Positions 28,273 to 48,496 of a DNA stretch of 64,000 bases are shown here, piece by piece. Below the pieces are notes generated by a model. It did not search any database and was not told where the DNA came from. It was given only the letters and a program-made list of their open reading frames with translations. The DNA is taken from NCBI GenBank assembly GCA_001508005.1, contig LGEZ01000006.1, positions 14,179 to 78,178 of the forward strand, in the 5' to 3' direction. Positions within the stretch are counted from its first letter, which is position 1. The number at the start of each line of letters is the position of its first letter. The DNA is from Clostridia bacterium 41_269 (GTDB lineage: Bacteria; Bacillota; DTU086). Both the position numbers and the translations under genes were made by a program.

Positions 28273-28281
28273 CCCAGCTTA

Positions 28282-29031: not shown

Positions 29032-29062
29032 AAATTCTCCCCCAGTTTAAGCTCTGTAAATC

Positions 29063-29920
29063 CTAATTTGTAGGAAATGAATAGCCTTGATAATCATTTT
29101 CTTTTGCATTATTAGAAAAACTATATCCATTATGCTGATTAGCAGAAGCTGGTTTTTGCGCTTTTTTATCATTAGGCTGTTTTTTTACATTAGTGCTGTC
29201 AGCTTTATCTGCAGCCTGGTTATCTAATTTATTATCCTTTGATGATTCTCCGCCAACTTTTTGGGTTTGCACCTCAGATTTTGTTTTCGGTCTGAATGGT
29301 TCTGTATTCGCTTTAACAGATTCCTGTATGTTTTCATTTAATTCCGCCGCAATAAAATTACGTTCATTTATAAGCTGATAAAGATATAATTTTAATTCTG
29401 CCGTAAATATTTGAGAACCGTTCTTTTCCCTGTATTCAATTTTAATATTTTCAACATCCACTATCCTTTCCCCGGATTCAAGCTTTTTTAATGCATCAAG
29501 AAAATCTTCATAATATCCCTCATACACTATGCTTATAGGTAAAATATTGTACCCCTTTCTCTTTACAGCTTCACCAGGCTGAAAAGAACTTATTGTACCA
29601 TACCTTTCAAAAAAATCAGCTATCTCCAAAACAGCACCTTTATCTGAACTGGACAAGAACCTATCAGAAATCTGCCCATACCTTTTTCTCAAATATTCAA
29701 GCTCACTCTTCATCTGTACAGCTTTATATTCCACAGACTTCCCCTGAGCAATTATATTTTCCAGATTTCCCATTTGTTTCCTAAGATTATTTAAACGAGA
29801 AAACTGGTTTTCCCACAAAAAATAATAAAACAATATAAAAACTAAAAATAAAACAGCTGTGCTAATTATTTTCTGCTCTCTCTGAGATAAATTCCTAATC
29901 TTTTCTATTAACTCCATCAT
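29063..29920 (-). CDS. pilO: PilO-like type IV pilus assembly protein with a low-complexity tail
   Basis: 285 aa with an N-terminal TM and coiled coil, directly downstream of pilN. The C-terminus is K/N/Q-rich with GYSF repeats. Confidence 0.55.
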   Translation of the reverse strand: MMELIEKIRNLSQREQKIISTAVLFLVFILFYYFLWENQFSRLNNLRKQMGNLENIIAQGKSVEYKAVQMKSELEYLRKRYGQISDRFLSSSDKGAVLEIADFFERYGTISSFQPGEAVKRKGYNILPISIVYEGYYEDFLDALKKLESGERIVDVENIKIEYREKNGSQIFTAELKLYLYQLINERNFIAAELNENIQESVKANTEPFRPKTKSEVQTQKVGGESSKDNKLDNQAADKADSTNVKKQPNDKKAQKPASANQHNGYSFSNNAKENDYQGYSFPTN

Positions 29921-30458
29921 CCTTATTCACTCCAAGGCTGCATACAATCCTAAACTCATAAAAATCTGTTCCTTCTATCATCTTAACTTCTTTTAGTTCA
30001 GCATTTTTTACAAGATCTATTGACTGAAGGGAAGGCAAAACAGACCTTATTGACGAATAGGAAGGGCTTTCACCGATCAGTAAAATAACTTTTTCAGAAC
30101 TTTTTCCCTCAAGGCTGGTCAGCCAAACATCCTCAGGAATGCAGTATTTGAGCTGTTCTAAAAAATTTCCCCATAAAAAACTGGGTTCCACTGATTTTAG
30201 ATCATTTATTTGGTTCTGCAGATTTTTTCTTTCTTTGTCCATATTCTTAAATTCCTTAATAACTTTTTCAGCACTTTTTGAATAAAAAGCAGTACTTTCC
30301 AAATCTTTTTCAGCGTCCATAATAAGGATATGCAGAACAATGGTAAACAGGATGCAGACTGATAAGGCTACCGCCGCTAATTTAAAAAACATTGAAAAAT
30401 TCAAAGAAACGCGTTTATCTCCTTTAACCTCTTCCGGCAGTAAATTTATTTTCAACAC
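29895..30458 (-). CDS. pilN: PilN-like type IV pilus assembly protein
   Basis: MLKINLLPEE (the INLLP signature), one TM, coiled coil. Confidence 0.7.
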   Translation of the reverse strand: MLKINLLPEEVKGDKRVSLNFSMFFKLAAVALSVCILFTIVLHILIMDAEKDLESTAFYSKSAEKVIKEFKNMDKERKNLQNQINDLKSVEPSFLWGNFLEQLKYCIPEDVWLTSLEGKSSEKVILLIGESPSYSSIRSVLPSLQSIDLVKNAELKEVKMIEGTDFYEFRIVCSLGVNKDDGVNRKD

Positions 30459-30460
30459 AG

Positions 30461-31462
30461 TTATTCTACCTCACGTAAAGCAAGCCCCGCAGCTATCCCA
30501 AATTTTGGAGGGATTAAAAAATAATCTCCGTCAAATTCCTGCAGGCCAAGCCTTAATGTTTCCACTGGAAGATCAATTATGCCATTCAAAACCTTTTCGG
30601 CATCTGCATCTGCACCTATGCCGCTTATTAAAACCTGGTTAACTGAAAAAACGCTGCTGCGGGATTGTAAATATTTTAAGGATCTTTCAATTTCAAAAGC
30701 TACTTCCTTTAACTTATCCTCGTATTCTGCATCTACTGATAACTTAACTATGTTATCTTCTTTATTATTTACTTCAAATTCCATGGGAATGGTACGCATT
30801 AAATGAACTTCATTCTTAGAAACTACTACAAGATTGGTATAATGATCGCCTAAATCTACTAGAGCTGTAGGAAAAGTAAAATCATGTTTCTCACCAAGCA
30901 TTATGGGCAGTCTTGCAATGGCAACAGGTTCCACCTCTATGGCTGTCAGTTCAAGACCACAGCTGGTAAATAAATCATAATACTGCCAAGATAAGCTTTT
31001 TGAAACCGCTGCAACTAATACATTAACCTGAGCATTTTCTTCATCAATATTTGTTACCGCATAATCCATTTCTACATCATTTAAATCAAAAGGTATCCAG
31101 CTTTCTGCCTCCCAAACTACAGCGGAAGCCAATTCCTTTTCGGACATCAAAGGCAAAAAAAACTGCCTGATAAATACCATATTCCCATGAACCGCAGTAA
31201 CTACCTGCCTGTTTTGAATACCTGTAATTTCTGTAAGTTCAAGCAGTGCTCGGTAAATTTCATCAGGTTTTATAATTTCACCGTTTTCACCAAAGCATCC
31301 GGGGATAAGTTCTATTTCTCCAGTTTGAGATAAAAAAATTGACTCATTTTTAAATAGCTCGGCCATACATATAGAACTTCTGCTGATGCTTATACCAATC
31401 CCCTTTTTCTTCTTGGATAAACTAAATAATTTGGAAAAATTAAACAAATCCTTATCCTCCAC
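30461..31462 (-). CDS. pilM: PilM type IV pilus assembly protein (actin-like ATPase fold)
   Basis: 333 aa. GIGISISRSSICMAEL, ALVDLGDHYTNLVVV and ISGIGA match the PilM/FtsA-like pattern. Position upstream of pilN fits. Confidence 0.8.
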   Translation of the reverse strand: MEDKDLFNFSKLFSLSKKKKGIGISISRSSICMAELFKNESIFLSQTGEIELIPGCFGENGEIIKPDEIYRALLELTEITGIQNRQVVTAVHGNMVFIRQFFLPLMSEKELASAVVWEAESWIPFDLNDVEMDYAVTNIDEENAQVNVLVAAVSKSLSWQYYDLFTSCGLELTAIEVEPVAIARLPIMLGEKHDFTFPTALVDLGDHYTNLVVVSKNEVHLMRTIPMEFEVNNKEDNIVKLSVDAEYEDKLKEVAFEIERSLKYLQSRSSVFSVNQVLISGIGADADAEKVLNGIIDLPVETLRLGLQEFDGDYFLIPPKFGIAAGLALREVE

Positions 31463-31484
31463 AAGTTACACTAAATCTCAAACT

Positions 31485-32633
31485 TTAATAAACTGGATAA
31501 AGCTCCTTCCATTCTAAAACAGCAGCTTCTTCCGCCCTTATACAATCACTAAGTTTTTCTACAAAAGAAGAATTATACAAAAAATCCTTGGTAAAACTCT
31601 CAATCTCAGCAGCTGCAGCAGCTCCCTCAATAAAGCCGCTACCGAAAACCCTTAAAACACCCTGCGATATCACTACTCCACTAAAAACACTAGTTCCATC
31701 AAAAAAAATTTCAGAACTGCTTATTAAACTTAAAGAAGATGTTCTGTCCGCTGGTACAAGCTGCTGACCGTCGTTCAGATGAATGCTTCCCTTTGATACA
31801 ATTAATGCCTGACCCATATAATTCTTGACATCACTTTCAAAGGTAACATTTCCCTCAACATAATAAATCCCACTCATATTTACAAGTTCTTCTTTAGAAA
31901 ACTGTTTGTTACCATCAAAATACTGACCCATATTCTGGGATTCCTTCATATACCAATCAAAATCAATGACAGGCGGCACAAATTTCTCTATATTTGCTCC
32001 ATCTGCCATTTTTCCCAAAACTTCTGAGCTTTCAGACGTTGATATTCTTTCTGCTGCATAAATATTTCCGTCTACCAGCGAATCATCAGCAGATGAAAAG
32101 TTTTGGCTGGAATATATATTCCCTTTTACTGCAGCATTTCCTGCCAACATAACATTACCGTTAACAAATATATCTCCTTCAATATTTGTATTATCAGCAA
32201 GGTAAAAATCAGATTCCCAGACAGTAAGCCCTCTTAAAACCATTATTAAAGAATATCTTCTGGGTTTTGAAATTTTAACCACGAGAGTCTTTTTAGCCTG
32301 ACCGCATTTGCCAATAACTGTTACCTCATAGAAATCACCCATATCCTTTACATTAATGTTTTCAATTTCTCCATCTCCCACTTTATAATTTTTGAATCCA
32401 TCCCATACTTTTTGCGACCAGTCCTCAACATCTGGGTTATAATTTAACTCCACAATAAACTTTCTAATTCCGCCCTCAGCTGCATAAAGTGCCTTATAAA
32501 AAGAAACCTCATCGTTTATTATCATTGAATCACTGAAAGTTAAATATAGAACTGCCGCCCCCAAGGATATTAAAATCAGTGTAAGCATAATCACACTTAT
32601 TAAAGCCATTCCCTTTTGTCCATTAAATCTCAT
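31485..32633 (-). CDS. PilX-N-like pilus-associated protein with beta-helix-like G-N-I/V repeats
   Basis: 382 aa with an N-terminal hydrophobic segment (GMALISVIMLTLILISLGAAVLYL), then GDIFVNGNVMLAGNAAVKGNIYSS...VDGNIYAAE (bactofilin-like repeat look). Confidence 0.5.
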   Translation of the reverse strand: MRFNGQKGMALISVIMLTLILISLGAAVLYLTFSDSMIINDEVSFYKALYAAEGGIRKFIVELNYNPDVEDWSQKVWDGFKNYKVGDGEIENINVKDMGDFYEVTVIGKCGQAKKTLVVKISKPRRYSLIMVLRGLTVWESDFYLADNTNIEGDIFVNGNVMLAGNAAVKGNIYSSQNFSSADDSLVDGNIYAAERISTSESSEVLGKMADGANIEKFVPPVIDFDWYMKESQNMGQYFDGNKQFSKEELVNMSGIYYVEGNVTFESDVKNYMGQALIVSKGSIHLNDGQQLVPADRTSSLSLISSSEIFFDGTSVFSGVVISQGVLRVFGSGFIEGAAAAAEIESFTKDFLYNSSFVEKLSDCIRAEEAAVLEWKELYPVY

Positions 32634-33106
32634 TGGGTATCTCCTTGAATAGGAAATGTTCTCACGAATACTTTTGTTTTAAGCTCAAAGCCCGTTATAC
32701 CTTTTATTACTATTTCCACAACCCCTTTTTCATCTGTTTCATTAAAGGATAAAAAACGTATCCCATAAGCAGCCACATTGTGCCCAGTTCCATTTACATC
32801 TCTAAGCAGCTGATCACCCTTTAAATAATAACGAATCTCCTCTCCCCCTGGAAGAAACATTTTCACTTCGCTATTTTTGTTTATAATTTCGTAATCTTTG
32901 GCTGTTCTCAACTCTCGGCTTACTCTGCTTACTGCTGTCCGCACATTATGCTGAATGTCAACTTTTAGTCTGCTGTATTCCCAAGCATTGAAACTAAAAT
33001 TAACCACTTGATAAATTCCCGCTGAAAACACTGCCAAAACAGCAGTAGCAACCAAAAGTTCCACAAAGGTAAATCCATTTTTTTCTTCTTTACTCTGCAT
33101 TATCAT
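32630..33106 (-). CDS. Minor pilin (prepilin-type N-terminal cleavage/methylation domain)
   Basis: KNG|FTFVELLVATAVLAVF class III signal peptide. 158 aa. Confidence 0.7.
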   Translation of the reverse strand: MIMQSKEEKNGFTFVELLVATAVLAVFSAGIYQVVNFSFNAWEYSRLKVDIQHNVRTAVSRVSRELRTAKDYEIINKNSEVKMFLPGGEEIRYYLKGDQLLRDVNGTGHNVAAYGIRFLSFNETDEKGVVEIVIKGITGFELKTKVFVRTFPIQGDTQ

Positions 33107-33459
33107 CCTCCGGAAATTAAAGTTGAAAGGGACAGCTTTCTAGATTTTCCTAGGACCTTATATGAAACAGTTACCGTTACCAAATACATTTTCTTATCTG
33201 GCACCACAGAAACCACATATGTATAACTTGGCATTTCATTAATAATCCCTTTCTCCTCAACTGCTTCTCCCTCTGCTATAATTTCTTCCATTTTCTGCTG
33301 GGCAAAATTTAAAGCAGCAGTTTTTCCCCCTGAAACCGCTGCTCCTCTACTACCCTGAGCAAATACATAAGTTAAAGGAACAATCACTACTATTAGGATC
33401 AAAAAAGCAGACAGCACTTCAATAAGAGTAAAACCATTACTGTTCTTTGGGAAAATCAT
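33103..33459 (-). CDS. Minor pilin (prepilin-type N-terminal cleavage/methylation domain)
   Basis: SNG|FTLIEVLSAFLILIVV. 118 aa. Confidence 0.7.
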   Translation of the reverse strand: MIFPKNSNGFTLIEVLSAFLILIVVIVPLTYVFAQGSRGAAVSGGKTAALNFAQQKMEEIIAEGEAVEEKGIINEMPSYTYVVSVVPDKKMYLVTVTVSYKVLGKSRKLSLSTLISGG

Positions 33460-33941
33460 TAATTTGCATCCACCTTTACTCTGCCGGTAACGGGCTGAAC
33501 TTTTACATACATTCTCTTTTTATAAATATCTTCCAAAGTTATGGTTCCCCCTTTTATTACTGTTCCCCGTGCATTAAAATGTACCGTATGATTATCAAAA
33601 TTGGTTCCCACAAGAATTACCCTTTTGGGCAGCTTCTTAATTTCATATTTCATGGGATCTTCCCTATTAAAATAGATGCGGTATGAATTGGAATGGGGCA
33701 TAAATTTAATCTTAAAAAAAGCGTATTCCTGGGCAAGTGCCATCTGCTGACCATTTCTAATGTCTGTGGCAATGGTATGAGCTGCATTTTTAAGCTCGTT
33801 TTTTGAAACAGCCTTAAGTGAAAAAGGGACTAAACAGGAAATAAGAAATACCATAAATACAATGGAAATAGCCAATTCCAACAGGGTAAAACCTTTTTCT
33901 TCTTGAATAAATAAAACTTTAAATGTCATTTCAGCACCCAA
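33459..33941 (-). CDS. Minor pilin, GspH/FimT-like
   Basis: EKG|FTLLELAISIVFMVF. 160 aa. Confidence 0.7.
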   Translation of the reverse strand: MGAEMTFKVLFIQEEKGFTLLELAISIVFMVFLISCLVPFSLKAVSKNELKNAAHTIATDIRNGQQMALAQEYAFFKIKFMPHSNSYRIYFNREDPMKYEIKKLPKRVILVGTNFDNHTVHFNARGTVIKGGTITLEDIYKKRMYVKVQPVTGRVKVDAN

Positions 33942-33982
33942 TAATGTATAAAAAATTTGCAGTGTAAAAATATATCAATTCC

Positions 33983-34729
33983 TTACCCAAAAGTATGGAG
34001 GAAATGCCCCCCCACCGCTAAAAATGGACCAAAGGGTATGCAGTCTTTTCTCCCTTTAAGCCCAAAAAAAACAAGCATTACCCCAACCAATCCGCCAACG
34101 CAAAAGGAAATAAACAGAGCTACAAGGACAAGCTTCCAGCCAAGAATAAGCCCCATAACAGCAGCCAGCTTGATATCGCCTCCACCCATACCTCCCCTGC
34201 TCAAAATACCAATTAACAAAAGAGGCATGCCGCCAGCTATTGAGCCCAAAAGCATATCTTCAACACCCGCTGTACCAACAAACAATTTAAGTATAACTCC
34301 TCCCCAAAAACCAAAAAAAACCAATGAGTTAGGAATTATCATGTTTTCCAAATCTGTAAAAACAGCAGCAGTGAGCACACTGGATATAAATAAATAAGGC
34401 AACAGTTCTCTACCTAAGCCGACTTTTAAATATATGGCAGAAAAAACTAAACCAACAAAGATCTCTGATAAGGGGTAGCGAAAACCTATTTTTTCAGCAC
34501 ACTGCCGACATTTTCCCTTCAATAAAATATAACTAAAGACAGGAATTAAATCCAACGGTTTTATAATTTCTTTGCAGCAGGGACAGCGGGATCTGTCCCA
34601 AATAACAGGTTTATTTCTAATAATTCTATATGAATAAGTGTTGATGAAACTTCCCACAATAAGTCCCACTGTAAAAATTAAAAATAATAAAATTTTCAAT
34701 GCACCTCTAAACCTTTTATTATTCTTCAT
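33983..34729 (-). CDS. pilD: Prepilin peptidase (A24 family)
   Basis: 248 aa: CPCCKEII...CRQCAEKI zinc motif, polytopic membrane protein, GGGDIKLAAVMG catalytic Asp motif. Confidence 0.9.
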   Translation of the reverse strand: MKNNKRFRGALKILLFLIFTVGLIVGSFINTYSYRIIRNKPVIWDRSRCPCCKEIIKPLDLIPVFSYILLKGKCRQCAEKIGFRYPLSEIFVGLVFSAIYLKVGLGRELLPYLFISSVLTAAVFTDLENMIIPNSLVFFGFWGGVILKLFVGTAGVEDMLLGSIAGGMPLLLIGILSRGGMGGGDIKLAAVMGLILGWKLVLVALFISFCVGGLVGVMLVFFGLKGRKDCIPFGPFLAVGGHFLHTFG

Positions 34730-35144
34730 CCTGCTGGTTTAAAAATTTCTTACCATTTTCGTCAATGGTTAATGTAAATTGGTGTCCCGAAGTTGTATTG
34801 AATATAGTGAGCACATTGTTACTGTTTACATTAATTTCATAATTTCCGCCCCAAGGATCTCTAGCACTGGAATCTATTCCGTAATCCTCTAGTTTTTCCA
34901 AATCACTGGGCCAATCATTATTTTGGTCATCAATTCTATACATCTGTGCAGCGGTCGCTATTGAATTTAAGTCAGCCTTAACCCGGGCTTCTTTAGCTTC
35001 ATTAATTCTTCCAAGAAAATTAGGAATCAAAAATCCAGTAAGTATACCAATAACCATTAACACTACCAACAGCTCAATTAATGTAAATCCCTTTTTATCC
35101 TCAAATAATGTTTTAATTGAGGTTTTAAGAAACCGTGAAAACAT
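34719..35144 (-). CDS. pilA: Major (pseudo)pilin, GspG/PulG-like
   Basis: 141 aa: KKG|FTLIELLVVLMVIGILTG after a 19-aa leader, plus DPWGGNY (GspG-type motif). Confidence 0.8.
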   Translation of the reverse strand: MFSRFLKTSIKTLFEDKKGFTLIELLVVLMVIGILTGFLIPNFLGRINEAKEARVKADLNSIATAAQMYRIDDQNNDWPSDLEKLEDYGIDSSARDPWGGNYEINVNSNNVLTIFNTTSGHQFTLTIDENGKKFLNQQDEE

Positions 35145-35180
35145 AAAATCTCCCCCAAGAAACCCTTCTAAAAAAACTTC

Positions 35181-36401
35181 TTAAAAATCATCAATAGTAC
35201 CTATAACCTTAAAAATAGGTAGCAGGATGGAAATAAGCAGCAAGCCTACTAATAGGCCCATAATTATTATCAAAACAGGTTCTATAAGTGTGGAAAGTCT
35301 TCTGGCAGTTTCCTCTACTTCTGCATCAAAAAAGCTCCCCACTTTTTCAAGCATTAAATCAATTGTTCCCGTTTCTTCGCCTACCGAAACCATTTCCACA
35401 ACCATGGTAGGGAAAACCCCACTGGCTTTTAGAGGCTCAGCCATGTTTTCTCCTTCCTTTATATTCTGGCGAACCTGATAAATGTTTTTTTCAAAGACAC
35501 TATTCCCAAGGGTTTTTTCCACCACTTCAAGAGCTTCTAGAATGGGCAAACCTCCCCTTAACAGAACAGCTAAGGTTCTGCAGAAACGGGAAATTATTAT
35601 TTTGCTGATAAATACTCCTATCAACGGAAATTTTAGAATCCAGCCGTCCCAAAGATTTCTCCCTTTTTCTTTACTCAACATATACTTAGCCAAGTAAAAA
35701 ATACACACAGCGCCTAAAAAAATCAGCAGCCAAAAATGCCTTAAAAAATCAGAAACTCCCAAGATAATCCTCGTCATCAAAGGCAGTTCTAGCTGCATTT
35801 GATTCAAAATACGTTCAAAAACAGGCAGAATAAAAACAACCACAAATGCTACAGCAAGAACAGCAACACAAAGAACTACCATGGGATATGTCAATGAAGA
35901 TTTAGCTTTTTCCCGTATGCTGTGCTCCCATTCAAAATAATCACCCATTCGCTCCAGTATACTGTCCAGAACACCTGCTGCTTCTCCTGCCGCAGCCATT
36001 TTTATCAGCACAAAGGGGAAAATTGAAGAGTGTTTATCTAAAGCTTCAGAAAAGCTTTCCCCCACCTCCAAACTTTGGCATAATTTAGCAGCTACTTCCT
36101 TTAATTTCTTTTTATTTGTCTGGTCTTCAAAAACTTTTAGAGCCGAAATAAGGGGAATACCTGATTGAATCATTAAGGAAAGCTGGCTGCAGAATATGCT
36201 TAAATCCCGCCTGCTTATTTTCTGCCCTAAAAATCCCGGCAGAATTAATTCTTTTTTTTGCTGTTTATTTTCTTCTAAATGAATAATGATTAAATTTTTA
36301 TTCCTTAACTTAAAAGCAGCTTGCTTTATGCTATCAGCATTAATACTTCCCGTAAAAAGCTGACCAGAATAATTTCTAGCTTTATAAAAAAATTCAGGCA
36401 T
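35181..36401 (-). CDS. pilC: Type IV pilus platform protein PilC (GspF family)
   Basis: 406 aa with two GspF repeats (SGIPLISALKV..., GGLPILEALEVV...) and 3 TM segments. Confidence 0.9.
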   Translation of the reverse strand: MPEFFYKARNYSGQLFTGSINADSIKQAAFKLRNKNLIIIHLEENKQQKKELILPGFLGQKISRRDLSIFCSQLSLMIQSGIPLISALKVFEDQTNKKKLKEVAAKLCQSLEVGESFSEALDKHSSIFPFVLIKMAAAGEAAGVLDSILERMGDYFEWEHSIREKAKSSLTYPMVVLCVAVLAVAFVVVFILPVFERILNQMQLELPLMTRIILGVSDFLRHFWLLIFLGAVCIFYLAKYMLSKEKGRNLWDGWILKFPLIGVFISKIIISRFCRTLAVLLRGGLPILEALEVVEKTLGNSVFEKNIYQVRQNIKEGENMAEPLKASGVFPTMVVEMVSVGEETGTIDLMLEKVGSFFDAEVEETARRLSTLIEPVLIIIMGLLVGLLLISILLPIFKVIGTIDDF

Positions 36402-36412
36402 AAATTCCTCTC

Positions 36413-37465
36413 CTAAATTTTATCTTCTCCGGAGGCGATCATTAAGCCAGCCTTGTTTACTTCATCTAGGGATATTTTATCTTCCTTTAAAAGACGCATT
36501 AAATCATTTTCCATAGTATGCATACCCAATTTCCGGCTTGACTGCATTACAGTATACAGAAGGTGAGTCTTTCCATCACGGATTAAATTTTTTACTGCAT
36601 TATTTGATATTAAAACTTCTGTTGCAGCAATCCTTCCTCTACCATCTTTAGTTGGCAAAAGTATCTGTGTAAGAACAGCACGTAAAGCATCGGCAAGCTG
36701 TATCCTTATCTGCTGCTGTTGATATGGAGGAAAAACATCGACTATCCTTTCAATGGACTGAGGAGCTCCCCTGGTATGAAGAGTGGCAAATACCAAATGT
36801 CCTGTCTCTGCTGCAGTTATAGCAGTGCTGATTGTTTCAAGATCCCGCATTTCTCCCACTAAAATTACATCTGGATCCTGCCGCAATGTAGCACGGAGCC
36901 CTTCTGAAAAGTTCTGGGTATCAGTACCGATTTCCCTTTGATTAACAATGCTTTTTTTATTTTCATGAAGATATTCAATGGGATCTTCGAGAGTTATTAT
37001 ATGACGGCTCAAAGTACTGTTGATCAAATCAATAAGGGCTGCAAGGGTTGTAGTTTTTCCACTGCCTGCAGGACCGGTTACCAAGACCAAACCGCAGTTA
37101 AATTTAGAAAAACCAGCTACTACAGGAGGCAGCCCCAGCTCATCTAAAGTTCTTATTTTACTGCTTATTATGCGTATTGCTATACCAATACAGTTTCTGT
37201 GTTTAAAAACGTTAACTCTAAACCTACCTACACTTTCTATGGAATATGCCAAATCCACATGCCCTTTTGTCAGAAAAATTTGCCATTGTTCACAGTCTGC
37301 TATGCTTTGTGCAAATTTAAAGACAGTTTCCCTGCATACAATTCCCCAATCATCTTGAATGCACAGTTTGCCGTTAATCCTAAAAACAGGTGGAGTTCCT
37401 TCAGAAATATGTACATCAGAAGCTCCCAATTCCTGAGCTTCCACAAGGATATCTCGAATATTCAC
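36413..37465 (-). CDS. pilT: Type IV pilus retraction ATPase PilT
   Basis: 350 aa: GASDVHI, Walker A GPAGSGKTTT, LRQDPDVILVGEMRD, TGHLVFATLHT. Confidence 0.9.
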   Translation of the reverse strand: MNIRDILVEAQELGASDVHISEGTPPVFRINGKLCIQDDWGIVCRETVFKFAQSIADCEQWQIFLTKGHVDLAYSIESVGRFRVNVFKHRNCIGIAIRIISSKIRTLDELGLPPVVAGFSKFNCGLVLVTGPAGSGKTTTLAALIDLINSTLSRHIITLEDPIEYLHENKKSIVNQREIGTDTQNFSEGLRATLRQDPDVILVGEMRDLETISTAITAAETGHLVFATLHTRGAPQSIERIVDVFPPYQQQQIRIQLADALRAVLTQILLPTKDGRGRIAATEVLISNNAVKNLIRDGKTHLLYTVMQSSRKLGMHTMENDLMRLLKEDKISLDEVNKAGLMIASGEDKI

Positions 37466-37493
37466 CTACAATCCACCTCAAAATCATAAAATC

Positions 37494-38976
37494 CTAAACT
37501 ATTCTCATTATCTCTTCTGTCGTTGTTTGACCTGCTAAAACTTTTGCAACCCCATCCTGCTTCATAGTAATAAAGCCTTCGCTATTTACTGCATATTCTC
37601 TTATTGCTTCAGAATGCTTTTTTCTTACAACCATCCTTTTAATACTGGAAGTTACATTTAGTATTTCTGCAACAGCCACTCTCCCTTTATATCCCGTAAA
37701 ACCACAATACTTACAGCCCTTACCTTTATATAACCTCAATTTTTTCTCCGCACCCCAGCCAAGGAAAACTTTCTCGGCATCGTCTGTAACTTCATATGCT
37801 TCTCTGCAGTTACTACATATTCTTCTAGTAACTTCTAGTAAGACGCTGCGCTACAACACCAATTACCGTAGTAGCTACTAAATAGGGTTCCACCCCCATA
37901 TCAAGAAGACGGGTTAGCGCTCCAGGTGCATCATTGGTGTGAAGTGTACTGAAAACAAGATGACCTGTATTTGCCGCTCTTACTGCTATTTTAGCTGTTT
38001 CCGTATCCCTAATCTCACCAATCATTATGACATCAGGGTCCTGACGCAATATTGCCCTCAAACCCACTGAAAAATTTAAGCCGGCTTTCTGATTAATTGA
38101 GATTTGATTTATCCCAGTGAGAACATATTCCACCGGATCTTCAATGGTTACAATATTTTTGCTTGGTGAATTAATTTCGTTAAGAGCTGCATATAGGGTA
38201 GTGGTTTTGCCGCTGCCAGTGGGACCAGTAACCAGTATCATGCCATATGGATGTCTGATAAGATGCTCAAAGGATGCTAGAGTATTTTCTGAAAAACCCA
38301 GTTCCCCTAATTTTAAAAGCCTAGTACTTCTGTCAAGAAGGCGCATAACTATTTTTTCTCCATACATCGTTGGCAAACTGGATACTCTAATATCTATTTC
38401 TCTATTTTGTATTATCTGCTGAATTCTTCCATCCTGAGGTAATCTTTTTTCAGCAATATCCATACCGGCCATAATTTTAATCCTTGAAGCAACAGAGCTA
38501 TGAGAAGTTATGGGAAAGGTCATTTTTTCTCTTAAAAGCCCATCTATACGAAACCTTACACGAACATCCCTCTTCCCGGGCTCTAAATGTATATCACTGG
38601 CATTTTCTCTTACAGCTTCACTTAAAATAGAGTTCACCAAGCTTATTATGGATATCTGCTCAGCAGAAACCGCATCATTTTCATTTGAAATCTCCAGTTT
38701 GATTTCAGTATTATCCTCTAAATTTTTTTTGAAGTCCTCATTTACCGTGATATAATAGCTTTCTATAGCATCTTCAATTTCATTTTCTGAAACATAAACA
38801 GGTTTAACCTTTTTCCCTGTACGCAGCCGTATCTCATCAATAACCATGACATCCAGAGGGTCTGCCATTGCAATAACCAACGAATCTCCTTCTTCAGCAA
38901 TTGGTACAGCCTTATATTTTAAGGCCAGTTCCTTTGGGATCAATTTTAGGATTTTATTAAATTTGCTGATTTTCAA
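37494..38976 (-). pseudogene. pilB: Type IV pilus assembly ATPase PilB (GspE family), disrupted by a 10-bp tandem duplication
   Basis: The 383-aa N-terminal ORF (Walker A GPTGSGKTTT) stops at ...AQRLTRSY*. The 81-aa ORF carries the C-terminal part (GKGCKYCGFTGYKGR). Removing one copy of TTACTAGAAG gives ...AQRLTRRICSNCREAYEVTDDAEKVFLGWGAEKKLRLYKGKGCKYC... Confidence 0.9.
37822..37841. repeat. Perfect 10-bp tandem duplication (cttctagtaa x2) inside pilB
   Basis: Read directly: t|cttctagtaa|cttctagtaa|g. Exactly two copies, with mismatches on both flanks. Confidence 0.95.
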
Positions 38977-38995
38977 AAGAATCTACTCCATACAT

Positions 38996-39015
38996 GTTTT
39001 ATTAAGTTTTATTAA
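38996..39015. repeat. Perfect 10-bp tandem duplication (gttttattaa x2) upstream of pilB
   Basis: Read directly across the 39000 line break. It lies 20-39 nt upstream of the pilB TTG start, in the aroB-pilB intergenic region. Confidence 0.9.
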
Positions 39016-39062
39016 AACATTCTCTTAACATTTGCTTATTTCCTGTTCTCTCCAAAATATTG

Positions 39063-39097
39063 AGAAAAAAAACTTATACGAAATTTTCTCGTATAAG
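39063..39097 (-). terminator. Intrinsic terminator overlapping the aroB stop codon
   Basis: CTTATACGA-GAAAATT-TCGTATAAG followed by T8 on the minus strand. It separates the aro genes from the pil operon. Confidence 0.65.
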
Positions 39098-40159
39098 CCT
39101 CAGCAATTCTCTTCTTTCAAATTGAACCATTTTAACTTTTCCTATATATTCAGGAAGCACGAAAGTGATTTTCCCTTCTCTGTTTTTCTTATCCTTATCT
39201 ATAACTTTAATAACCATTTCCGGTTCCAATGAAAAATCAGGTGAACTGGGAAGTTCGAAAGCACTAATTAGATCAAGAATTCTCTCCGCTTCATTTTTAT
39301 GTAATAATCCTATCCTTTCAGCCAGCAGGGCTTCCATACACATACCTATGGACACTGCTTCCCCATGCTTATACAGTTTTAATCCCCCAAGGGTTTCTAT
39401 TACATGGCCAAAAGTATGGCCAAAATTTAGTATCATTCTTAAACTGCTTTCCCGCTCATCAGCTGAAACTACTTCAGCTTTTATTTCACAAGATCTTGTT
39501 ATAATATGCTCAATGGCTTCCCAATCAAAATCTAATATTTTCTTTACATTATCATCTAGAAAAACAAAAAATTCTTTATCCCAAATTATCCCGTATTTAA
39601 TAACTTCTGCAGCTCCTGCTCTGAATTCTCTTAAGGGAAGGGTTTTTAGGGTTTCGGGATCGATAATTACCAGCAAAGGTTGATAAAAAGAACCTATTAA
39701 ATTCTTGTAACCTAAAAAATTTACTGCTACTTTTCCGCCAACGCTGCTGTCAACCTGAGCCAGCAAAGTGGTGGGAACCTGAACAAAAGGGATTCCCCTC
39801 ATATACGTAGCTGCAGCAAATCCAGCCAGGTCCCCTATCACTCCACCACCCAGGGCAATAATTGCAGAGTTCCGCGAAAGTCCAAATTTCACAGCATGAT
39901 GATAAATATCCTCAACAACAGAAAGAGATTTTGCTTCCTCGCCGTCTTTTACCAAAATCTTTGAATATTTAAAACCTGCGTCCTTTAGAGATTCAGTCAC
40001 TTGATCACCATAAAAAGTGTCCACAGTGCCATTTGTTATAATAAGACATTCCTTTGACAATCTAAATTTGCTTAAAAGAGGACCTATATCGTTTAGAATT
40101 CCCTTTTCAACTAAAATATCATAACTTCTTTCCCCTAAATTAACCCTGATCGTCTTCAT
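39074..40159 (-). CDS. aroB: 3-dehydroquinate synthase
   Basis: GGGVIGDLAGFAAATYMRGIPFVQVPTTLLAQVDSSVGGK..., HTFGHVIE. The ATG at 40159 follows GAAGGGA; the ORF track starts at 40183. Confidence 0.9.
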   Translation of the reverse strand: MKTIRVNLGERSYDILVEKGILNDIGPLLSKFRLSKECLIITNGTVDTFYGDQVTESLKDAGFKYSKILVKDGEEAKSLSVVEDIYHHAVKFGLSRNSAIIALGGGVIGDLAGFAAATYMRGIPFVQVPTTLLAQVDSSVGGKVAVNFLGYKNLIGSFYQPLLVIIDPETLKTLPLREFRAGAAEVIKYGIIWDKEFFVFLDDNVKKILDFDWEAIEHIITRSCEIKAEVVSADERESSLRMILNFGHTFGHVIETLGGLKLYKHGEAVSIGMCMEALLAERIGLLHKNEAERILDLISAFELPSSPDFSLEPEMVIKVIDKDKKNREGKITFVLPEYIGKVKMVQFERRELLRLIRENFV

Positions 40160-40679
40160 GTTTTTTCCCTTCAAGATAATCAATTATATTCTTCACAACC
40201 TCACTGTGCTCATTATCGGAAGTATCAAAAAATGCCTCTGCATAACGTTTATAATAAGGTTCCCTCTCTTTTAAAAGCTCTTCTATTCTTTTTATGGATT
40301 TATCACGATGCAGCAGAGGCCTATCATCTCTTCTCTTAACACGTTTCTGTATTACTTCCGGCCTAGCAGTGAGGCAGATAATTCTACCAGATTTCTGCAT
40401 AATTTCGGCATTTTCCTCATCCATTACTGCACCTCCTCCTGTTGCAATTACTGCGTTATTTAGGGAACATGCTTTCTTAAGGGCCAGCTTTTCCTCTGAC
40501 CTAAAGCGGCACTCTCCATGTTTTTGAAAAATTTGGGAAATGGTCATTCCCGTAACCCGCTCAATTTCTTTATCAGTATCTATAAATTTTTTCCCCAAGG
40601 CCTGAGCAAGTCTTTTACCCACAGCAGTCTTCCCTGTGCCCATAAAGCCTATTAAGATAATATTGTCTTTTTCTCTCAT
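40140..40679 (-). CDS. aroK: Shikimate kinase
   Basis: 179 aa: Walker A GFMGTGKTAVGK, FIDTD, ATGGG. Confidence 0.9.
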   Translation of the reverse strand: MREKDNIILIGFMGTGKTAVGKRLAQALGKKFIDTDKEIERVTGMTISQIFQKHGECRFRSEEKLALKKACSLNNAVIATGGGAVMDEENAEIMQKSGRIICLTARPEVIQKRVKRRDDRPLLHRDKSIKRIEELLKEREPYYKRYAEAFFDTSDNEHSEVVKNIIDYLEGKKHEDDQG

Positions 40680-40685
40680 AATTCC

Positions 40686-41843
40686 TTATACCTGCCTTTC
40701 ATAACCTCTGTATCTTGCAACTTCATTAAAAATTTCTTCCATATAATCTCCACCAAATTTTTCTAAAACTGCCTCAGCCAGAACTATAGACACCACTGCT
40801 TCTCCAACAACAGCAGCTGCAGGAACAGCACAAACATCAGAACGCTCCACAGCTGCTTTTACAGGTTTTTTTGTTCTTATATCAACACTGGGAAGGGATT
40901 TAATGAGAGTAGGAATGGGCTTCATGGCAGCCCTGGCAATTATGGGCTCACCATTGCTCATTCCCCCTTCAAGTCCACCAGCATTATTAGTTAAGCGGTA
41001 AAAGCCGCGATCATCATTATAGTATATGGCATCGTGAACCTCTGAACCAGGTTTTTCTGCCGCTTTAAATCCTATACCAAATTCAACCCCTTTTACTCCT
41101 GGTATGCTCATAAGAGCCTGCGCTAACCGCCCATCAAGCCGTCGATCCCAATGGGCGTAACTTCCCAATCCAGGTGGTACATTTTCAGCAATAACTTCAA
41201 ATATACCCCCTAAAGAATCCCCTTCCCGCTTTGCATTGTCAATTTCCCTAAGCATTTCTTCAGCTTTTTCACTGTCGATGCACATAACCGGAGAATCAAG
41301 AGCTTTGGAAAGCATATGGGGTTCAATCTTATTTATATCTATAGCAACATTTCCTATTCTAATAACATGACTATTGATATTTATGCCGAGAGCTTCTAAA
41401 AATATTCGAGCAACAGCTCCCACTGCGACTCTAGCTGCTGTTTCCCTGGCACTAGCTCTTTCCAGAACATTTCGCATATCTTTATGCCTGTATTTTATAG
41501 CCCCCGCCAAATCAGCATGCCCAGGCCTTGGAGCTGTAACTTTTTTAGCTTCTAAATCCGCTGACTTGTCTGCTGCCATGATATCCTGCCAATTTTCCCA
41601 ATCTTTGTTTTCAATTACCAGGCAAATGGGGCTTCCTAAAGTAAATCCACCCCTTACACCACTGGTTATTTTTACTCTGTCTCGTTCCAGCTCCATCCTT
41701 TTTCCTCTTCCATAACCCCTCTGCCGCCGCTGAAGCTGAAAATTTATAGCTTTCTCACTTAATTCCAATCCTGCAGGTATTCCTTCTATTATAGCCGTTA
41801 AACAGGGTCCATGGGATTCCCCTGCTGTCAGAAAACGAAACAT
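40686..41843 (-). CDS. aroC: Chorismate synthase
   Basis: 385 aa: [44 protein letters not shown]. Confidence 0.95.
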
Positions 41844-41880
41844 TTTTACACCCCGCTGAAGTAATATAAATTACAAAAGT

Positions 41881-42354
41881 TTAATTACCCATCTCATTTA
41901 ATTTTCGAGAAGAAATTTTGTCCTTTAAAAATTCTATAAAGCTTTTATTTTGCTCTTCAAGAAGCTTTTCCTGGATATTCTTTTTCTCCAGCCTCAAAAG
42001 CTCAACCTGTCTGGCAAGTTTTCTGCTTTCTTCCCTTGCCTTCTGCAGTTCTTCCATAATGGACGACAGCATAAAAATAACCGTATTTTTAAAGTTTTGC
42101 TCAATTCCTAAGGCACTATTTAAAGCTTTATCCAGCTCTAACCTGCGTTTAGCTCCTTTTATAGTATACTGTTCTGTATACAGCAGTTCTTTAATCTGTG
42201 CAAACATCTCCAAATGTTCTTCAGTATACCTCTTTCTTTTTCCTTTGGAATTAACTTTTAAATATTCAGCAAACTCTTTTTCCCAAAAACGTATTGTACT
42301 GGGCTCCACCTGAAGGATTTCACTTAGTTGATGGATAGTAAATTTCTCTGACAA
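41881..42354 (-). CDS. MerR-family HTH protein with a coiled-coil C-terminus
   Basis: 157 aa: FTIHQLSEILQVEPSTIRFWEKEF. Embedded between aroE and aroC. Confidence 0.7.
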   Translation of the reverse strand: MSEKFTIHQLSEILQVEPSTIRFWEKEFAEYLKVNSKGKRKRYTEEHLEMFAQIKELLYTEQYTIKGAKRRLELDKALNSALGIEQNFKNTVIFMLSSIMEELQKAREESRKLARQVELLRLEKKNIQEKLLEEQNKSFIEFLKDKISSRKLNEMGN

Positions 42355-42443
42355 AACAGGGCCCCCTTTTTACTATTTTATTTTTTGTGTATGTTTTTCA
42401 TCAGTTATAAATAAAATCCTGCAGCAAATATGGAATTATTTTC

Positions 42444-43313
42444 CTACACTTTCCGCCATAATTCGTCGTGGAGGGCCCTATACATTACCTCAACAGGAGG
42501 TTTAATACCAGTAAACAAACGAAAAGCTTCTACACCTTGGTACAGAAGCATTCCTGAACCATCAATCACTTTACATCCCATTTCCCTTGCTGTCTTTAAA
42601 AAAAGAGTTTGAATAGGGTTATAGATTAGATCACAAACAACAGCTTCAGGGTTTATGCAGCTCATATCAGAAATAGGAATCATATTTGTATTAGGATACA
42701 TTCCCACAGGAGTAGCATTTACAATTATATCAGCTTGTCTAAGCTCAAATCTCAACACTTCATCACTATTTAAACCCACAGCAAAACTCTCAGTTCCAAT
42801 TTTTTTTATATGTTCAGCAAGCTCCCATGCTCGTTTTAAATTTCTATTTGCGATGGTAATTTTTAACGCACCTTCCACCGCCAATGCAGTGGCAACAGCC
42901 TTAGCAGCTCCACCTGCACCTATAATTAATATTTTCTTTCCTTTATACAAAACACCATCTTTTTTTAAGGATTCTAAAAATCCTTTCCCATCAGTATTAT
43001 AACCATATGTTTTACCATCTTTAATAACCACTGTATTTACTGCCCCAATAAGGCACGCATTTTCGTCCAATTCATCTATATATTTAATCACAGCTTCTTT
43101 GTATGGAATAGTAACATTGAAACCCACAAAACCCAATGACAGCATTCCCTTTACAGCTTCTTCAAGATTTTCAGGCAGCACATTAAATGCAAGATAGCAG
43201 AAATCCAGCCCACAGTGATTAATGGCAGCATTTTGCATTATCGGAGAAAGGGAATGCTCTATAGGATGCCCTATTAAACCTATAGCCCTGGTGCTTGAAG
43301 TAATTCTATTCAC
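42444..43313 (-). CDS. aroE: Shikimate dehydrogenase
   Basis: GLIGHPIEHSLSPIMQN, NVTIPYKE, NTDGKGF, GAGGAAKAVA. GTG at 43313 follows a GGGGG RBS; the ORF track starts at 43358. Confidence 0.85.
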   Translation of the reverse strand: MNRITSSTRAIGLIGHPIEHSLSPIMQNAAINHCGLDFCYLAFNVLPENLEEAVKGMLSLGFVGFNVTIPYKEAVIKYIDELDENACLIGAVNTVVIKDGKTYGYNTDGKGFLESLKKDGVLYKGKKILIIGAGGAAKAVATALAVEGALKITIANRNLKRAWELAEHIKKIGTESFAVGLNSDEVLRFELRQADIIVNATPVGMYPNTNMIPISDMSCINPEAVVCDLIYNPIQTLFLKTAREMGCKVIDGSGMLLYQGVEAFRLFTGIKPPVEVMYRALHDELWRKV

Positions 43314-43348
43314 ACAAAAACCCCCAGCCAAATTATAATAGAACAAAC

Positions 43349-43825
43349 TTAGCGACAAAACTTTTCAAAAAAGCGCATAATCTTTGTTCCTATAAATTCA
43401 TGACTGCTGATGGGTTCCACTAGAATTGTATATAGCCCCATTCTATTCCCACCTAATACATCAGTAAATATTTGATCCCCGATAACTGCTGTTTCATTTA
43501 TATTGGATTCTAATATCTTTAAGGCCTGTCTAAAAGCTTTTCTACGGGGCTTTCCAGCTTTTGGTATGGAAGGTATACCCAAAACCTCCGCAATTAAGGA
43601 AACTCTTTCTCCAGGATTATTGGAAACCAAACATGCTTTAAAACCCTTTTCTTTTATTCTTTCAAACCATGAAAGAACTTCATTACTTACCTCAAGAGCA
43701 TTCCATCTAGTAATGGTATTATCAAGATCTATAATCAAGCTGTTTATTCCTTTATTTTGCAGCACTTGAAGATCTATATCAAATATAGACTTTACTTTTA
43801 AATCAGGGGTTAAAAGATCTTTCAT
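43349..43825 (-). CDS. yqeG: YqeG-family HAD (subfamily IIIA) phosphatase
   Basis: LIIDLDNTI (DxDxT), LVSNN, GDQIFTDVLGGN. The ATG at 43825 follows AAAGGTG; the in-frame upstream extension to 43873 lacks a good RBS. Confidence 0.75.
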   Translation of the reverse strand: MKDLLTPDLKVKSIFDIDLQVLQNKGINSLIIDLDNTITRWNALEVSNEVLSWFERIKEKGFKACLVSNNPGERVSLIAEVLGIPSIPKAGKPRRKAFRQALKILESNINETAVIGDQIFTDVLGGNRMGLYTILVEPISSHEFIGTKIMRFFEKFCR

Positions 43826-43856
43826 TGTAAAGCACCTTTCATTGTAAAGCACCTTT
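43819..43856. repeat. Perfect 17-bp tandem duplication (ctttcattgtaaagcac x2.2) spanning the yqeG RBS and start codon
   Basis: Read directly. On the minus strand it is GTGCTTTACAATGAAAG twice, so the RBS and ATG are both duplicated. Confidence 0.9.
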
Positions 43857-43967
43857 AAAATCTTCATTCTCAAAGTTTCGTAAACTGAGGATAATTATAT
43901 CACACCATTTACTGATAAAGAAAAATACATCCATACGCCTTTACCTTGTTATTGTAAATTTTACATC

Positions 43968-44969
43968 TTATACTTCTTTGTTTAAGCTCTTATTTAAATC
44001 ACCAAAGCTTTTGTAACCATGCAGTGAATCAGCATTTTTTACAGCCCTAACAACAGCTCTTTCAACAACATGTGCCGCAAGATATCCAAGCAGATTCAAA
44101 TCCACATTTACTTTACAAGTTGACAGCGTAAATATAGTGTCCCCATCAACCATTGTATGGGAAGGACAAACAGTTCTTGCCAACCCATCATGGGCCGCTG
44201 AAGCAATTCTGTTTGCCTGAGCTTTATTTAATACAGCATTGGTAGCTACAACTCCTATTACGGTATTACCTCCATTTAAAAAACCTAATCTGCCTCTACT
44301 GTACAAATCCAAAAGACGAACAGCAGAATCAGCAAAAGTAACTTTATCCTTATTAAGAGCACCAGCAATAATTTTATTGCCCTCAAAAGGATCTATTACA
44401 TCTCCCAAACAATTCACAGCCATTACAGCACCCACCTTTAAATCACCAAACTGAATACTGTATGTTCCAAGACCGCCTTTCATAGCATATTCAAATCCCA
44501 ACAGCTTCCCCACAGTTGCACCAGTTCCTGCTCCAACATTTCCTTCCGGACATTCTGCTTTTTCTGAATTAAGGCAGGCTTTGTAGCCCATATTTTTATC
44601 AGGTCGAACGTCATGTTTACCTATCTGAAGATCATAAAGAACAGCTCCAACCACTATGGGCACTTTTGCTGCTGCTGTTTCAAAGCCTATATTTTTTTCC
44701 TCCAAATACTGCATAACTCCAGCAGCAGCATCCAAGCCAAAAGCGCTGCCGCCTGTTAACAGCACAGCATGAACTTTTTCAACTAAATTTGAGGGATCCA
44801 ATAGATCTGTTTCCCTGGTACCAGGAGCACCTCCCCTCACATCTACACCGGCAACTGCTCCTTCTTCACACAAAATAACAGTACAGCCCGTTGCAGCCTC
44901 TAAATCCTGCTCATGACCGATCTTTAAACCTATATCGGTAAATTTTATGGTTTTCATAATCATTCCCAC
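43968..44969 (-). CDS. Peptidase S58 (DmpA / P1 family) aminopeptidase-like
   Basis: 333 aa: GCTVILCE, GAPGTRETDLL, GNTVIGVVATNAVLNKAQANR. Confidence 0.65.
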   Translation of the reverse strand: MGMIMKTIKFTDIGLKIGHEQDLEAATGCTVILCEEGAVAGVDVRGGAPGTRETDLLDPSNLVEKVHAVLLTGGSAFGLDAAAGVMQYLEEKNIGFETAAAKVPIVVGAVLYDLQIGKHDVRPDKNMGYKACLNSEKAECPEGNVGAGTGATVGKLLGFEYAMKGGLGTYSIQFGDLKVGAVMAVNCLGDVIDPFEGNKIIAGALNKDKVTFADSAVRLLDLYSRGRLGFLNGGNTVIGVVATNAVLNKAQANRIASAAHDGLARTVCPSHTMVDGDTIFTLSTCKVNVDLNLLGYLAAHVVERAVVRAVKNADSLHGYKSFGDLNKSLNKEV

Positions 44970-44994
44970 CCATTTTAAAAAATTTTATATTGAT

Positions 44995-45021
44995 AAAAAT
45001 CCCGGATTTACCGGGATTTTT
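44995..45021 (-). terminator. Intrinsic (bidirectional-looking) terminator after the M20 gene
   Basis: AAAAATCCCGG-TAAAT-CCGGGATTTTT. Confidence 0.55.
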
Positions 45022-45025
45022 ATAC

Positions 45026-46318
45026 TTAAATTTTCTCTGTATTGCACCACTCTAAAATAAATTTAAATATAATTTTAGTGTAAGCCAAAAGATTGTCAAC
45101 ACTTACACTTTCATCTACGCTGTGAGCCTTTCCCAGCTCGCCGGGACCATAAATTACTGTGGGAATCCCCGCCTCTGCAAGCCAACCTGCATCGGTTACC
45201 GTGGGTGACATATCTACCACCGGCGGACTACCCACAATTTCTGCGTGAATGCTTTCCAAAAGCTTTAACCCTTCATGGTTCCTATCCAGTTCAAGTGATG
45301 GAAAAATTTCGCCTCTATCTTCAAGCATAGATTTTCCTCCCCAGCGGAAAAGGGGTGGGTTTTCTTTAAGCCAAGGATCAGCTTTTGCAACATTTAAAAT
45401 ATGTTCTTCAATCTCTTTCGAAACATCTTCATAATTTTCATTGGGATAAAAATGCACTGTTATCCATAAAGAACATCTATCTGCTACAAACGCAGCATGT
45501 CTGCCCCCTTCAATCACAGCGGGGTTAATGGTATTGCTTCCCGGTGGAAATCCTGGATAGCTTTTCACCACTGCCCAGTGTCTTTCCAATTCCTGCAAGC
45601 CCTGTACAATTTTAACCATTTTTTCCACTGTGCTGGCAGCAAATAGGCCTCCTCCGGCATGAATCATTTTTGCTCTAACTCCATCATGATAAGTATTAGG
45701 ACTTTGAACAGTTATCCAGCCTGTAATTACACCACCCTGCCCATACTGCAGCTTAAAATCGCTTATATCTCCCACTATGGCAAAATCTGCTTTAGGTCCT
45801 TTCTGTACAGCTTCTAAGGTAATTCCTTCACCTGCTTCTTCACCTGTAACACTGTGAAAAATAAGATTTCCACCCAAAGAAACATTTTTTTCTTTAAGAA
45901 GTTTCAGAATTAAAAGATAAGCCGCTTGTGCAGCTTTCATATCCGAAGCTCCCCTACCAAACAGCCTTCCATCTTTAACAAAGGGCTTAAAGGGATCAAA
46001 GGACCATTGGGAATCATCTCCCACTTCTGCAACATCCACATGGGTATTCAGGATGAGGCTCTTATATTTTTGGGGATTAGCTCCTGAAATTACGGCTACA
46101 ATATTAGGATCTCCTTTAAAAGTTTCCCAGCGTATAATTTCTGCATCCAAATTTTTAAGATAATCCTCAATAAAATTTTGAATCTCAGTGCTATTTCTAC
46201 CAGGCGGGCTCACATTGGGAAATGATATAAGTTTTGAAGCCAATTCAATCAGTTCATCCCTGTGTTTGTCAATCAATTTTTCAACATCAAAATCAAATTC
46301 AAATTCATTTTTATTCAT
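45026..46318 (-). CDS. M20 family (ArgE/DapE/YlmB-like) amidohydrolase
   Basis: 430 aa: NTHVDVAEVGD, GRGASDMKAAQAA, SVTGEEAGEG. The start is 27 nt after the SSS stop, with a GGGGGGAG RBS. Confidence 0.75.
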   Translation of the reverse strand: MNKNEFEFDFDVEKLIDKHRDELIELASKLISFPNVSPPGRNSTEIQNFIEDYLKNLDAEIIRWETFKGDPNIVAVISGANPQKYKSLILNTHVDVAEVGDDSQWSFDPFKPFVKDGRLFGRGASDMKAAQAAYLLILKLLKEKNVSLGGNLIFHSVTGEEAGEGITLEAVQKGPKADFAIVGDISDFKLQYGQGGVITGWITVQSPNTYHDGVRAKMIHAGGGLFAASTVEKMVKIVQGLQELERHWAVVKSYPGFPPGSNTINPAVIEGGRHAAFVADRCSLWITVHFYPNENYEDVSKEIEEHILNVAKADPWLKENPPLFRWGGKSMLEDRGEIFPSLELDRNHEGLKLLESIHAEIVGSPPVVDMSPTVTDAGWLAEAGIPTVIYGPGELGKAHSVDESVSVDNLLAYTKIIFKFILEWCNTEKI

Positions 46319-46345
46319 TTAGCTCCCCCCTGAAATTTTAAAAAA

Positions 46346-47773: not shown

Positions 47774-47900
47774 TTTATTGATTCCTCCTATAATTATTTT
47801 TTAATAAAATCATGAAAAAACATTATATATATATATTCCAGAAAGAAAACCCCTACGTTCATATCCCCCCTTTCTAAAATTTTCCGCCTCGGGAAATTTA

Positions 47901-47934: not shown

Positions 47935-47963
47935 TTATAAAATATCTTTCTTTTTATTTTCAA

Positions 47964-48486: not shown

Positions 48487-48496
48487 CTACACACCA

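Follow-up and report, generated by a model that had tools for sequence, protein, structure and literature searches.

Why is pilB, the gene for the assembly ATPase of a type IV pilus, broken into two open reading frames (ORFs) in Clostridia bacterium 41_269, and does the break belong to the cells or to the assembly? The gene lies in a 64,000-nt stretch of this uncultured, heat-loving anaerobe (GenBank assembly GCA_001508005.1, contig LGEZ01000006.1, positions 14,179 to 78,178 of the forward strand), which was analysed at its full length and is called the window below. A 10-bp tandem duplication separates the two ORFs; it is real DNA and represents the derived state. The duplication probably arose recently and spontaneously and became fixed, at the consensus level, in one population of a lineage that accumulates frame-breaking insertions and deletions (indels). 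This reading has to be weighed against a reversible switch of piliation, the footprint of a mobile element and an artefact of the data.

The duplication and the PilB reading frame

On the minus strand of pilB, the unit TTACTAGAAG occurs twice in perfect tandem (copy 1, 37841..37832; copy 2, 37831..37822), in the context ...GCGCAGCGTC TTACTAGAAG TTACTAGAAG AATATGTAG... or, read further outward, ...GTAGCGCAGCGTC-TTACTAGAAG-TTACTAGAAG-AATATGTAGTAACTGC.... The copy number is exactly 2.0, the neighbouring bases give no extension of the repeat, and the 10-mer has no further occurrence in the 64-kb window. At the break the frame reads ...AQRLTR(381)-S-Y-TAG, so that two wrong residues follow codon 381 before the stop. 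The downstream ORF as listed covers only the last 81 amino acids (aa), from TTG 37739; the full out-of-frame remainder (Table 1) lies in the +1 frame and holds the whole CxxC-x30-CxxC zinc motif together with the C-terminal end of the ATPase domain. Deleting either copy of the unit yields a single 490-aa pilB frame, of which the truncated PilB loses 109 residues, including all four zinc-binding cysteines. The first-pass annotation had described a perfect 10-bp tandem duplication that splits pilB into ORFs of 383 and 81 aa, and had stated that removal of one copy restores the frame with its tetracysteine motif; both statements were confirmed, the motif falling at residues 384-421 of the repaired protein.

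The identity of the protein was assessed on the pieces and on the repaired frame. The N-terminal ORF matched GspE/PilB models (E about 1e-150), and the 81-aa piece matches positions 408-485 of 486 in the GspE profile. In the repaired protein, Pfam T2SSE (PF00437, E 2e-139) spans residues 106-488 (profile 4-370 of 370), and residues 8-489 align to solved PilB structures (3jc8, 5tsg, 6olj; E about 1e-137), ungapped at the junction. There the nearest relatives read ...VVAQRLARRICNSCRQEY..., with P0002 to P0004 ungapped against the single-copy form, and relatives have unrelated codons at the site of the 10-mer. In repaired numbering, Walker A (GPTGSGKT) lies at 251-258, DPDVI at 313-317 and TGH at 337-339. 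These three motifs are all upstream of the break, and the ATPase-domain signature of the GspE/PilB family is therefore present in the encoded product, which also retains the C-terminal part of the MshEN domain. The tetracysteine motif, in contrast, is absent from the encoded 383-aa PilB (0 of 4 cysteines) and present in the single-copy allele of the sister strain X2 described below. The repaired PilB shares Walker A, Asp box, His box and zinc motif with the solved GspE/PilB ATPases (Myxococcus PilB 3jc8, Geobacter PilB 5tsg/5tsh, Thermus PilF 6f8l, Vibrio EpsE 4ksr), whereas the window product ends ahead of the zinc motif.

The motif, CxxC-x21-40-CxxC, separates extension from retraction ATPases and is essential in the GspE/PilB family; in EpsE, deletion of the domain or replacement of any one cysteine abolished function (PMC5061722). 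The truncated PilB would be unable to form an active extension motor, and this population would then assemble no such pilus. A functional split PilB was rejected, as the earliest start of the downstream frame, TTG 37739, falls past the first CxxC and the break lies within the C-terminal domain of the ATPase. Rescue by recoding or frameshifting was likewise rejected: a slippery heptamer is absent, and an in-frame TAG lies inside the second copy.

The other end of the gene differs from that of its relatives as well. Translation of pilB starts at TTG 38976, with a GGAG Shine-Dalgarno (SD) sequence 9 nt upstream, a position that is homologous in the DNA alignment to the ATG, with GGGG, of the relatives. 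PilB of close relatives has 553-556 aa; that of the window, even after repair, is 66 codons shorter at the N-terminus, owing to an in-frame deletion that kept the SD sequence and the start position (compared with L081:1978-2180 and L084:9001-9200). Cyclic di-GMP (c-di-GMP) binding by MshEN domains involves two tandem 24-residue motifs, RLGxx(L/V/I)(L/V/I)xxG(L/V/I)(L/V/I)xxxxLxxxLxxQ (PMC5013675). The relative P0002 has them at residues 6-29 and 35-58, the first with K at the Gly position; the deletion takes both away, and no motif of this kind was found in the PilB sequence of the window, which thus lacks this MshE-type feature. X2 carries the 66-codon deletion too (contig gapless over 38866..39622), which makes the deletion older than the 10-bp duplication. 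The codons ATG-TTA-AGA at 39030 were considered as a remnant MLR start, which would imply a second 5' break beside the repeat at 38996; this was rejected, since they align to intergenic DNA of the relatives. Identity of pilB to its L081 orthologue is about 80%, compared with 76% for aroB, 76% for pilT and 75% for pilC. Its conservation is on par with that of its neighbours, and we therefore infer normal constraint until recently and a recent inactivation.

Two alleles in near-identical populations

Nine public sequencing runs share words with the region, and they were compared as assembled contigs, which drop rare variants. X1 is a terrestrial metagenome of study P1, X3 is another sample of P1, and X2 is a hot-springs metagenome from a different study (2025). 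The Logan contig of X1 (9190 nt, depth 167.7) spans 32587..41776 with 0 differences from the window and contains both copies. The X3 contig (658 nt, depth 5.44) traverses both copies and 21 nt further, again with 0 differences. The X2 contig (567 nt, depth 5.44) spans 37466..38042 with 0 mismatches and one gap of exactly 10 letters at 37822. Contig ends carry the Illumina TruSeq adapter. Runs X4, X5, X6, X8 and X9 are without coverage of the pilB site. X3 differs from X1 by single-nucleotide polymorphisms (SNPs) at 47334 and 63317 and is thus not the same DNA pool. With two copies in X1 and X3 and one in X2, neither the assembler nor a homopolymer error accounts for the duplication, and the single-copy allele is a natural one. 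Relatives with two copies and a compensating change were looked for as well; the sole near-identical strain seen at the site, X2, is single-copy. Pattern scans of public metagenome and genome contig collections for either junction form returned no match, the window's own contig being likewise unrecovered, and exact-protein look-ups for PilT and AroB returned no record.

X2 was compared with the window over 10940..64000 (about 53 kb). The two differ by 24 SNPs (19 transitions to 5 transversions) and 12 indels, at about 99.95% identity. Eight gene-breaking indels, each checked singly, are specific to the window's lineage (pilB, the pilD tail, spoIIIAE, spoIIIAF, sigK and three in mltG; Table 1). 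All eight are derived there, against one in X2, a 5-bp tandem duplication (TTAAT) at 60972 that puts an AI-2E/YtvI-like permease out of frame at residue 253 of 368. Polarisation of 11 SNPs with the outgroups L081 and L084 gave the opposite picture (7 derived in X2, 3 in the window's lineage, 1 ambiguous). The window's branch thus has many indels and few substitutions, and the branch of X2 the reverse. The homopolymers that differ between the strains in the compared region comprise all three A/T9 runs, the T10 run and the only G7 run.

The families of the broken genes were confirmed by profile matches on the unrepaired pieces. Those of spoIIIAE match profile positions 1-227 and 224-379, and X9, from a fourth study, has the intact form of this gene. 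The window's sigK loses the region 4.2 helix-turn-helix ...MGLSRSYISRIEKKA..., while the X2 form is canonical and ends ...MGLSRSYISRIEKKAIQKL.... In mltG, the insertions at 53983 and 53113 lie in T9 and A8 runs and that at 53473 is not in a homopolymer; X2 has one open frame of 383 codons. At each gene-breaking site that it covers, X3 matches the state of the window. The first-pass annotation had set the pilB duplication apart from homopolymer errors and had called the pilus cluster otherwise complete, and neither view could be maintained: the breaks in sigK, mltG (all three), spoIIIAE and spoIIIAF recur in library X3 and are absent in X2, i.e., they are real mutations, and the cluster has lost, besides the 66 N-terminal codons of PilB, the proper end of pilD.

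The neighbourhood expected of a GspE/PilB gene surrounds pilB (pilT, pilC, pilin, prepilin peptidase and pilMNO), preceded by aroK and aroB in the same order as in the closest relatives, L081 and L084. Within it, pilD has G7 in the window and G6 in X2 at 34007..34013, by which the last 24 or so residues are replaced in the window: its product ends ...GGHFLHTFG*, that of X2 ...PFGPFLAVGGISSILLGKELIYFYTANFLYIIGC and those of relatives ...PFGPFLALGGIFSILFGRELIYFYTANFYV, the G6 form and the relatives both containing ...GGISSILLGKELIYFYTANF.... With this frameshift, the window's lineage carries two lesions in its pilus pathway. X2, in turn, has C>A at 36802 in pilT, which converts Gly222 of the His box (TGH, ...ETGHLV...) to TGA; X3, X4, X5 and both outgroups keep G. 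Each lineage has thus taken its own hits in pilus genes, a motor gene included: pilB and pilD in the window's, pilT in that of X2.

Gene decay and its alternatives

The sequence shows a tandem copy of ten bases behind codon 381 and a shifted frame that runs through two wrong residues into TAG. In the course of events that we consider probable, the copy arose spontaneously, by replication slippage or a template-switch type event. The lineage would make frame-breaking indels unusually often, tolerate them unusually well, or both, and the pilB duplication would be an early step of pseudogenisation rather than a dedicated switch. It could revert precisely by slipped-strand deletion, as could any perfect tandem duplication; because pilD is altered too, piliation might not return with pilB alone. 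Multiple hits per pathway, as found here (pilB and pilD; spoIIIAE, spoIIIAF and sigK; mltG three times), are to be expected of neutral decay once a first gene is lost, and a single reversible switch needs none. Under relaxed selection, Bacillus subtilis reportedly lost sporulation and unused functions by mutation accumulation. The window resembles those lines in having several knock-outs in one pathway (spoIIIAE, spoIIIAF, sigK) along with losses in other dispensable systems; they come from a laboratory experiment of known history, whereas the window comes from an uncultured population.

Could the ten bases instead be the OFF state of a stochastic piliation switch, kept where loss of the pilus pays, e.g., against pilus-specific phages? 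A perfect tandem duplication is a substrate for precise slipped-strand reversion, both pilB alleles occur naturally in near-identical strains, and the independent hits on pilus genes in the two lineages would suit such a switch. Precedent is found in the Streptococcus pneumoniae capsule genes cap3A, cap8E and tts, for which phase variation by spontaneous tandem duplication has been described (Waite et al., 2001, 2003; as cited in PMC11163986 and PMC4243769). As related in these citing papers, a perfect duplication arises de novo in a repeat-free ORF and shifts its frame, the single copy being the functional form and loss of a copy restoring the gene; pilB likewise has a frameshifting perfect tandem duplication within the ORF and a functional single-copy form. 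By the same accounts, however, switching in S. pneumoniae was measured in culture and many different duplications were met per gene, varied ones being reported for cap3A, whereas pilB has one duplication, at the consensus of one natural population, accompanied by many unrelated frameshifts and with no reversion observed. The ancestral state of pilB is a single copy, so no repeat tract was there beforehand. Each sample showed one allele, in contigs that cannot show minorities, and the pilD lesion together with six frame breaks in unrelated genes fits decay better. Simple-sequence-repeat contingency loci are long standing tracts, kept by selection, in which slipped-strand events put genes for surface structures into or out of frame (PMC11868660, PMC3315296). 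The present alleles differ between close strains as those of contingency loci do, and pilD G6/G7 and sigK A8/A9 are mechanically of this type. Unlike at contingency loci, the functional allele at the pilB site has no multi-unit tract (one copy of the 10-mer in X2), and the affected genes include housekeeping and sporulation genes. Mechanistically, a reversible OFF state of pilB is possible; the repeated damage within single pathways speaks for decay, and we regard such a switch as improbable.

Two further origins are more improbable still. The copies might be the target-site duplication (10 bp) of an insertion sequence (IS) that entered pilB and was later excised, as the first-pass annotation had suggested. 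Exactly two copies without flanking microhomology are what the filling in of a staggered cut would produce. Excision of a bacterial IS that keeps the target duplication intact is rare, however, and none of the nine runs showed an element-bearing allele, the only alternative being the empty single-copy site of X2. No transposase was noticed near the pilB site, a genome-wide IS search not having been made. Tandem duplications of 5, 10, 11 and 17 bp argue for a general process rather than for a single transposase cutting at a fixed stagger. The window holds 5 perfect tandem duplications whose unit is at least 10 nt long, against 0.21 expected per window (300 first-order Markov simulations), and 4 of the 5 are intergenic or harmless. 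Short perfect tandem duplications are thus a recurrent type of mutation here, the TTAAT duplication in the X2 permease being a second disruptive example in the species. With an empty site as the only other allele and duplications of several lengths recurring, the suggested footprint is unsupported, and we give it very little credence. The same holds for a duplication produced by sequencing, library preparation or assembly and absent in the cells. The window is identical to a metagenome contig of the Joint Genome Institute (JGI) that is 168,877 bp long (sample 3300010240, for which no paper was found), X1 probably derives from these very data, and frame breaks are many in this genome, all of which would suit an artefact. 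Nevertheless, the Logan assemblies of X1 (about 168x) and of the second library X3, whose two SNPs mark a separate DNA pool, both contain the duplication, and Illumina TruSeq chemistry creates no 10-bp duplications at the consensus level. These two re-assemblies also bear out the earlier judgement that a base-calling artefact is unlikely.

Returning to decay of pilB, several points weigh against it or narrow it. Folding energy at the duplication matches that of shuffled sequences (z -0.02 for the single-copy and -0.78 for the duplicated form, no significant hairpin), and an origin from a hairpin or quasi-palindrome was rejected on this ground; with neither flanking microhomology nor a significant hairpin, the exact origin of the duplication is thus not accounted for. 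For the intact pilB allele, the source is a single X2 contig, about 5x deep. X1 and X3, though 2 SNPs apart, share a study and do not count as independent populations, and contigs hide minority alleles, so that a single-copy minority inside the X1 population would not show. The number of PilB genes is known from the window alone, and a paralogue may exist elsewhere in the genome. A classical mismatch-repair mutator does not readily supply a cause for the indel excess. The excess itself is present, but only 3 of 10 polarised SNPs fall on the window's branch, which does not fit a substitution mutator; because the branch lacks an excess of substitutions, this cause is disfavoured.

A tentative proposal, which we hold to be rather doubtful, is that the window comes from a natural lineage whose mutation spectrum is dominated by indels. 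About 11 slippage-type indels (+/-1, +2, +10) in 53 kb, against a handful of substitutions, would have been fixed since the split from X2. Behind them would stand a repair or polymerase defect specific to indels, or else mutagenesis of the stress type, outside growth, in the subsurface. If true, a free-living spore-former would here be undergoing very rapid reductive evolution, of which natural examples are rare, with indels that knock out sporulation (spoIIIAE, spoIIIAF, sigK), the pilus (pilB, pilD) and a wall gene (mltG); the pilB duplication would be one of its visible results.

Tandem duplications that shift the frame of a pilus gene are an already-known kind of event. What the present case adds is that both pilB alleles are documented directly in near-clonal populations from different sites. 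As a natural knock-out of pilB, it suggests that cells in at least one habitat can do without the pilus or are selected to lose it. The window's frame breaks recur in an independent library and are absent in the sister strain, and should be annotated as real pseudogenes. In this lineage, sporulation, pili and other functions may be undergoing rapid natural loss through indels. For physiology inferred from the metagenome-assembled genome (spores, twitching or DNA uptake, aromatic amino acid synthesis), it follows that the gene set of this population is damaged and that of the species is not.

Coordinates of the pilus cluster, indels and tandem duplications

Table 1. Features of the window discussed in the text, in window coordinates; indel entries compare the window with X2.
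Feature	Position	Strand	Observation or basis
pilB, truncated product, 383 aa	37825..38976	-	ORF list, profile matches
pilB, out-of-frame 3' remainder, 109 codons + stop	37494..37823	-	repaired reading
pilB indel	37822	-	two copies in window, one in X2; +10 frameshift in window
pilT, retraction ATPase	36413..37465	-	intact in window; profile matches, strain comparison
pilC, platform protein	35181..36401	-	intact; profile match
major pilin, prepilin-type	34719..35144	-	profile match
pilD, prepilin peptidase	33983..34729	-	C-terminal tail frameshifted; G7 run 34007..34013
pilD indel	34007	-	G7 in window, G6 in X2; tail frameshifted in window
minor pilins, 382-aa protein, pilM, pilN, pilO	29063..33941	-	matching gene order in relatives
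spoIIIAF indel	12827, within 12470..14301	-	A4 in window, A5 in X2; split in window, intact in X2
spoIIIAE indel	13593, within 12470..14301	-	A6 in window, A7 in X2 and X9; split in window
sigK (49210..49884) indel	49244..49252	-	A9 in window, A8 in X2; frameshifted in window
mltG (endolytic transglycosylase, 53044..54195) indels	53983, 53473, 53113	-	+1 at each in window; three fragments
indel without clear coding effect	16501		T10 in window, T11 in X2
indel without clear coding effect	18225		intergenic
indel without clear coding effect	21993		A9 in window, A7 in X2
AI-2E/YtvI-like permease gene	60623..61729	-	frameshifted in X2
tandem duplication, 10-nt unit, perfect	38996..39015		aroB-pilB spacer; unchanged in X2
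tandem duplication, 10-nt unit, perfect	23929..23950		beside tRNA-Val (23817..23891); unchanged in X2
tandem duplication, 11-nt unit, perfect	7095..7117		intergenic, between 7039 and 7205; outside the region compared with X2
tandem duplication, 17-bp unit, x2.2	43819..43856	-	SD/ATG region of HAD-phosphatase gene duplicated, AAAGGTGCTTTACAATGA x2

The repeat at 43819 creates a mini-ORF of 6 codons that overlaps the real start of the HAD-phosphatase gene, and X2 has this repeat too.

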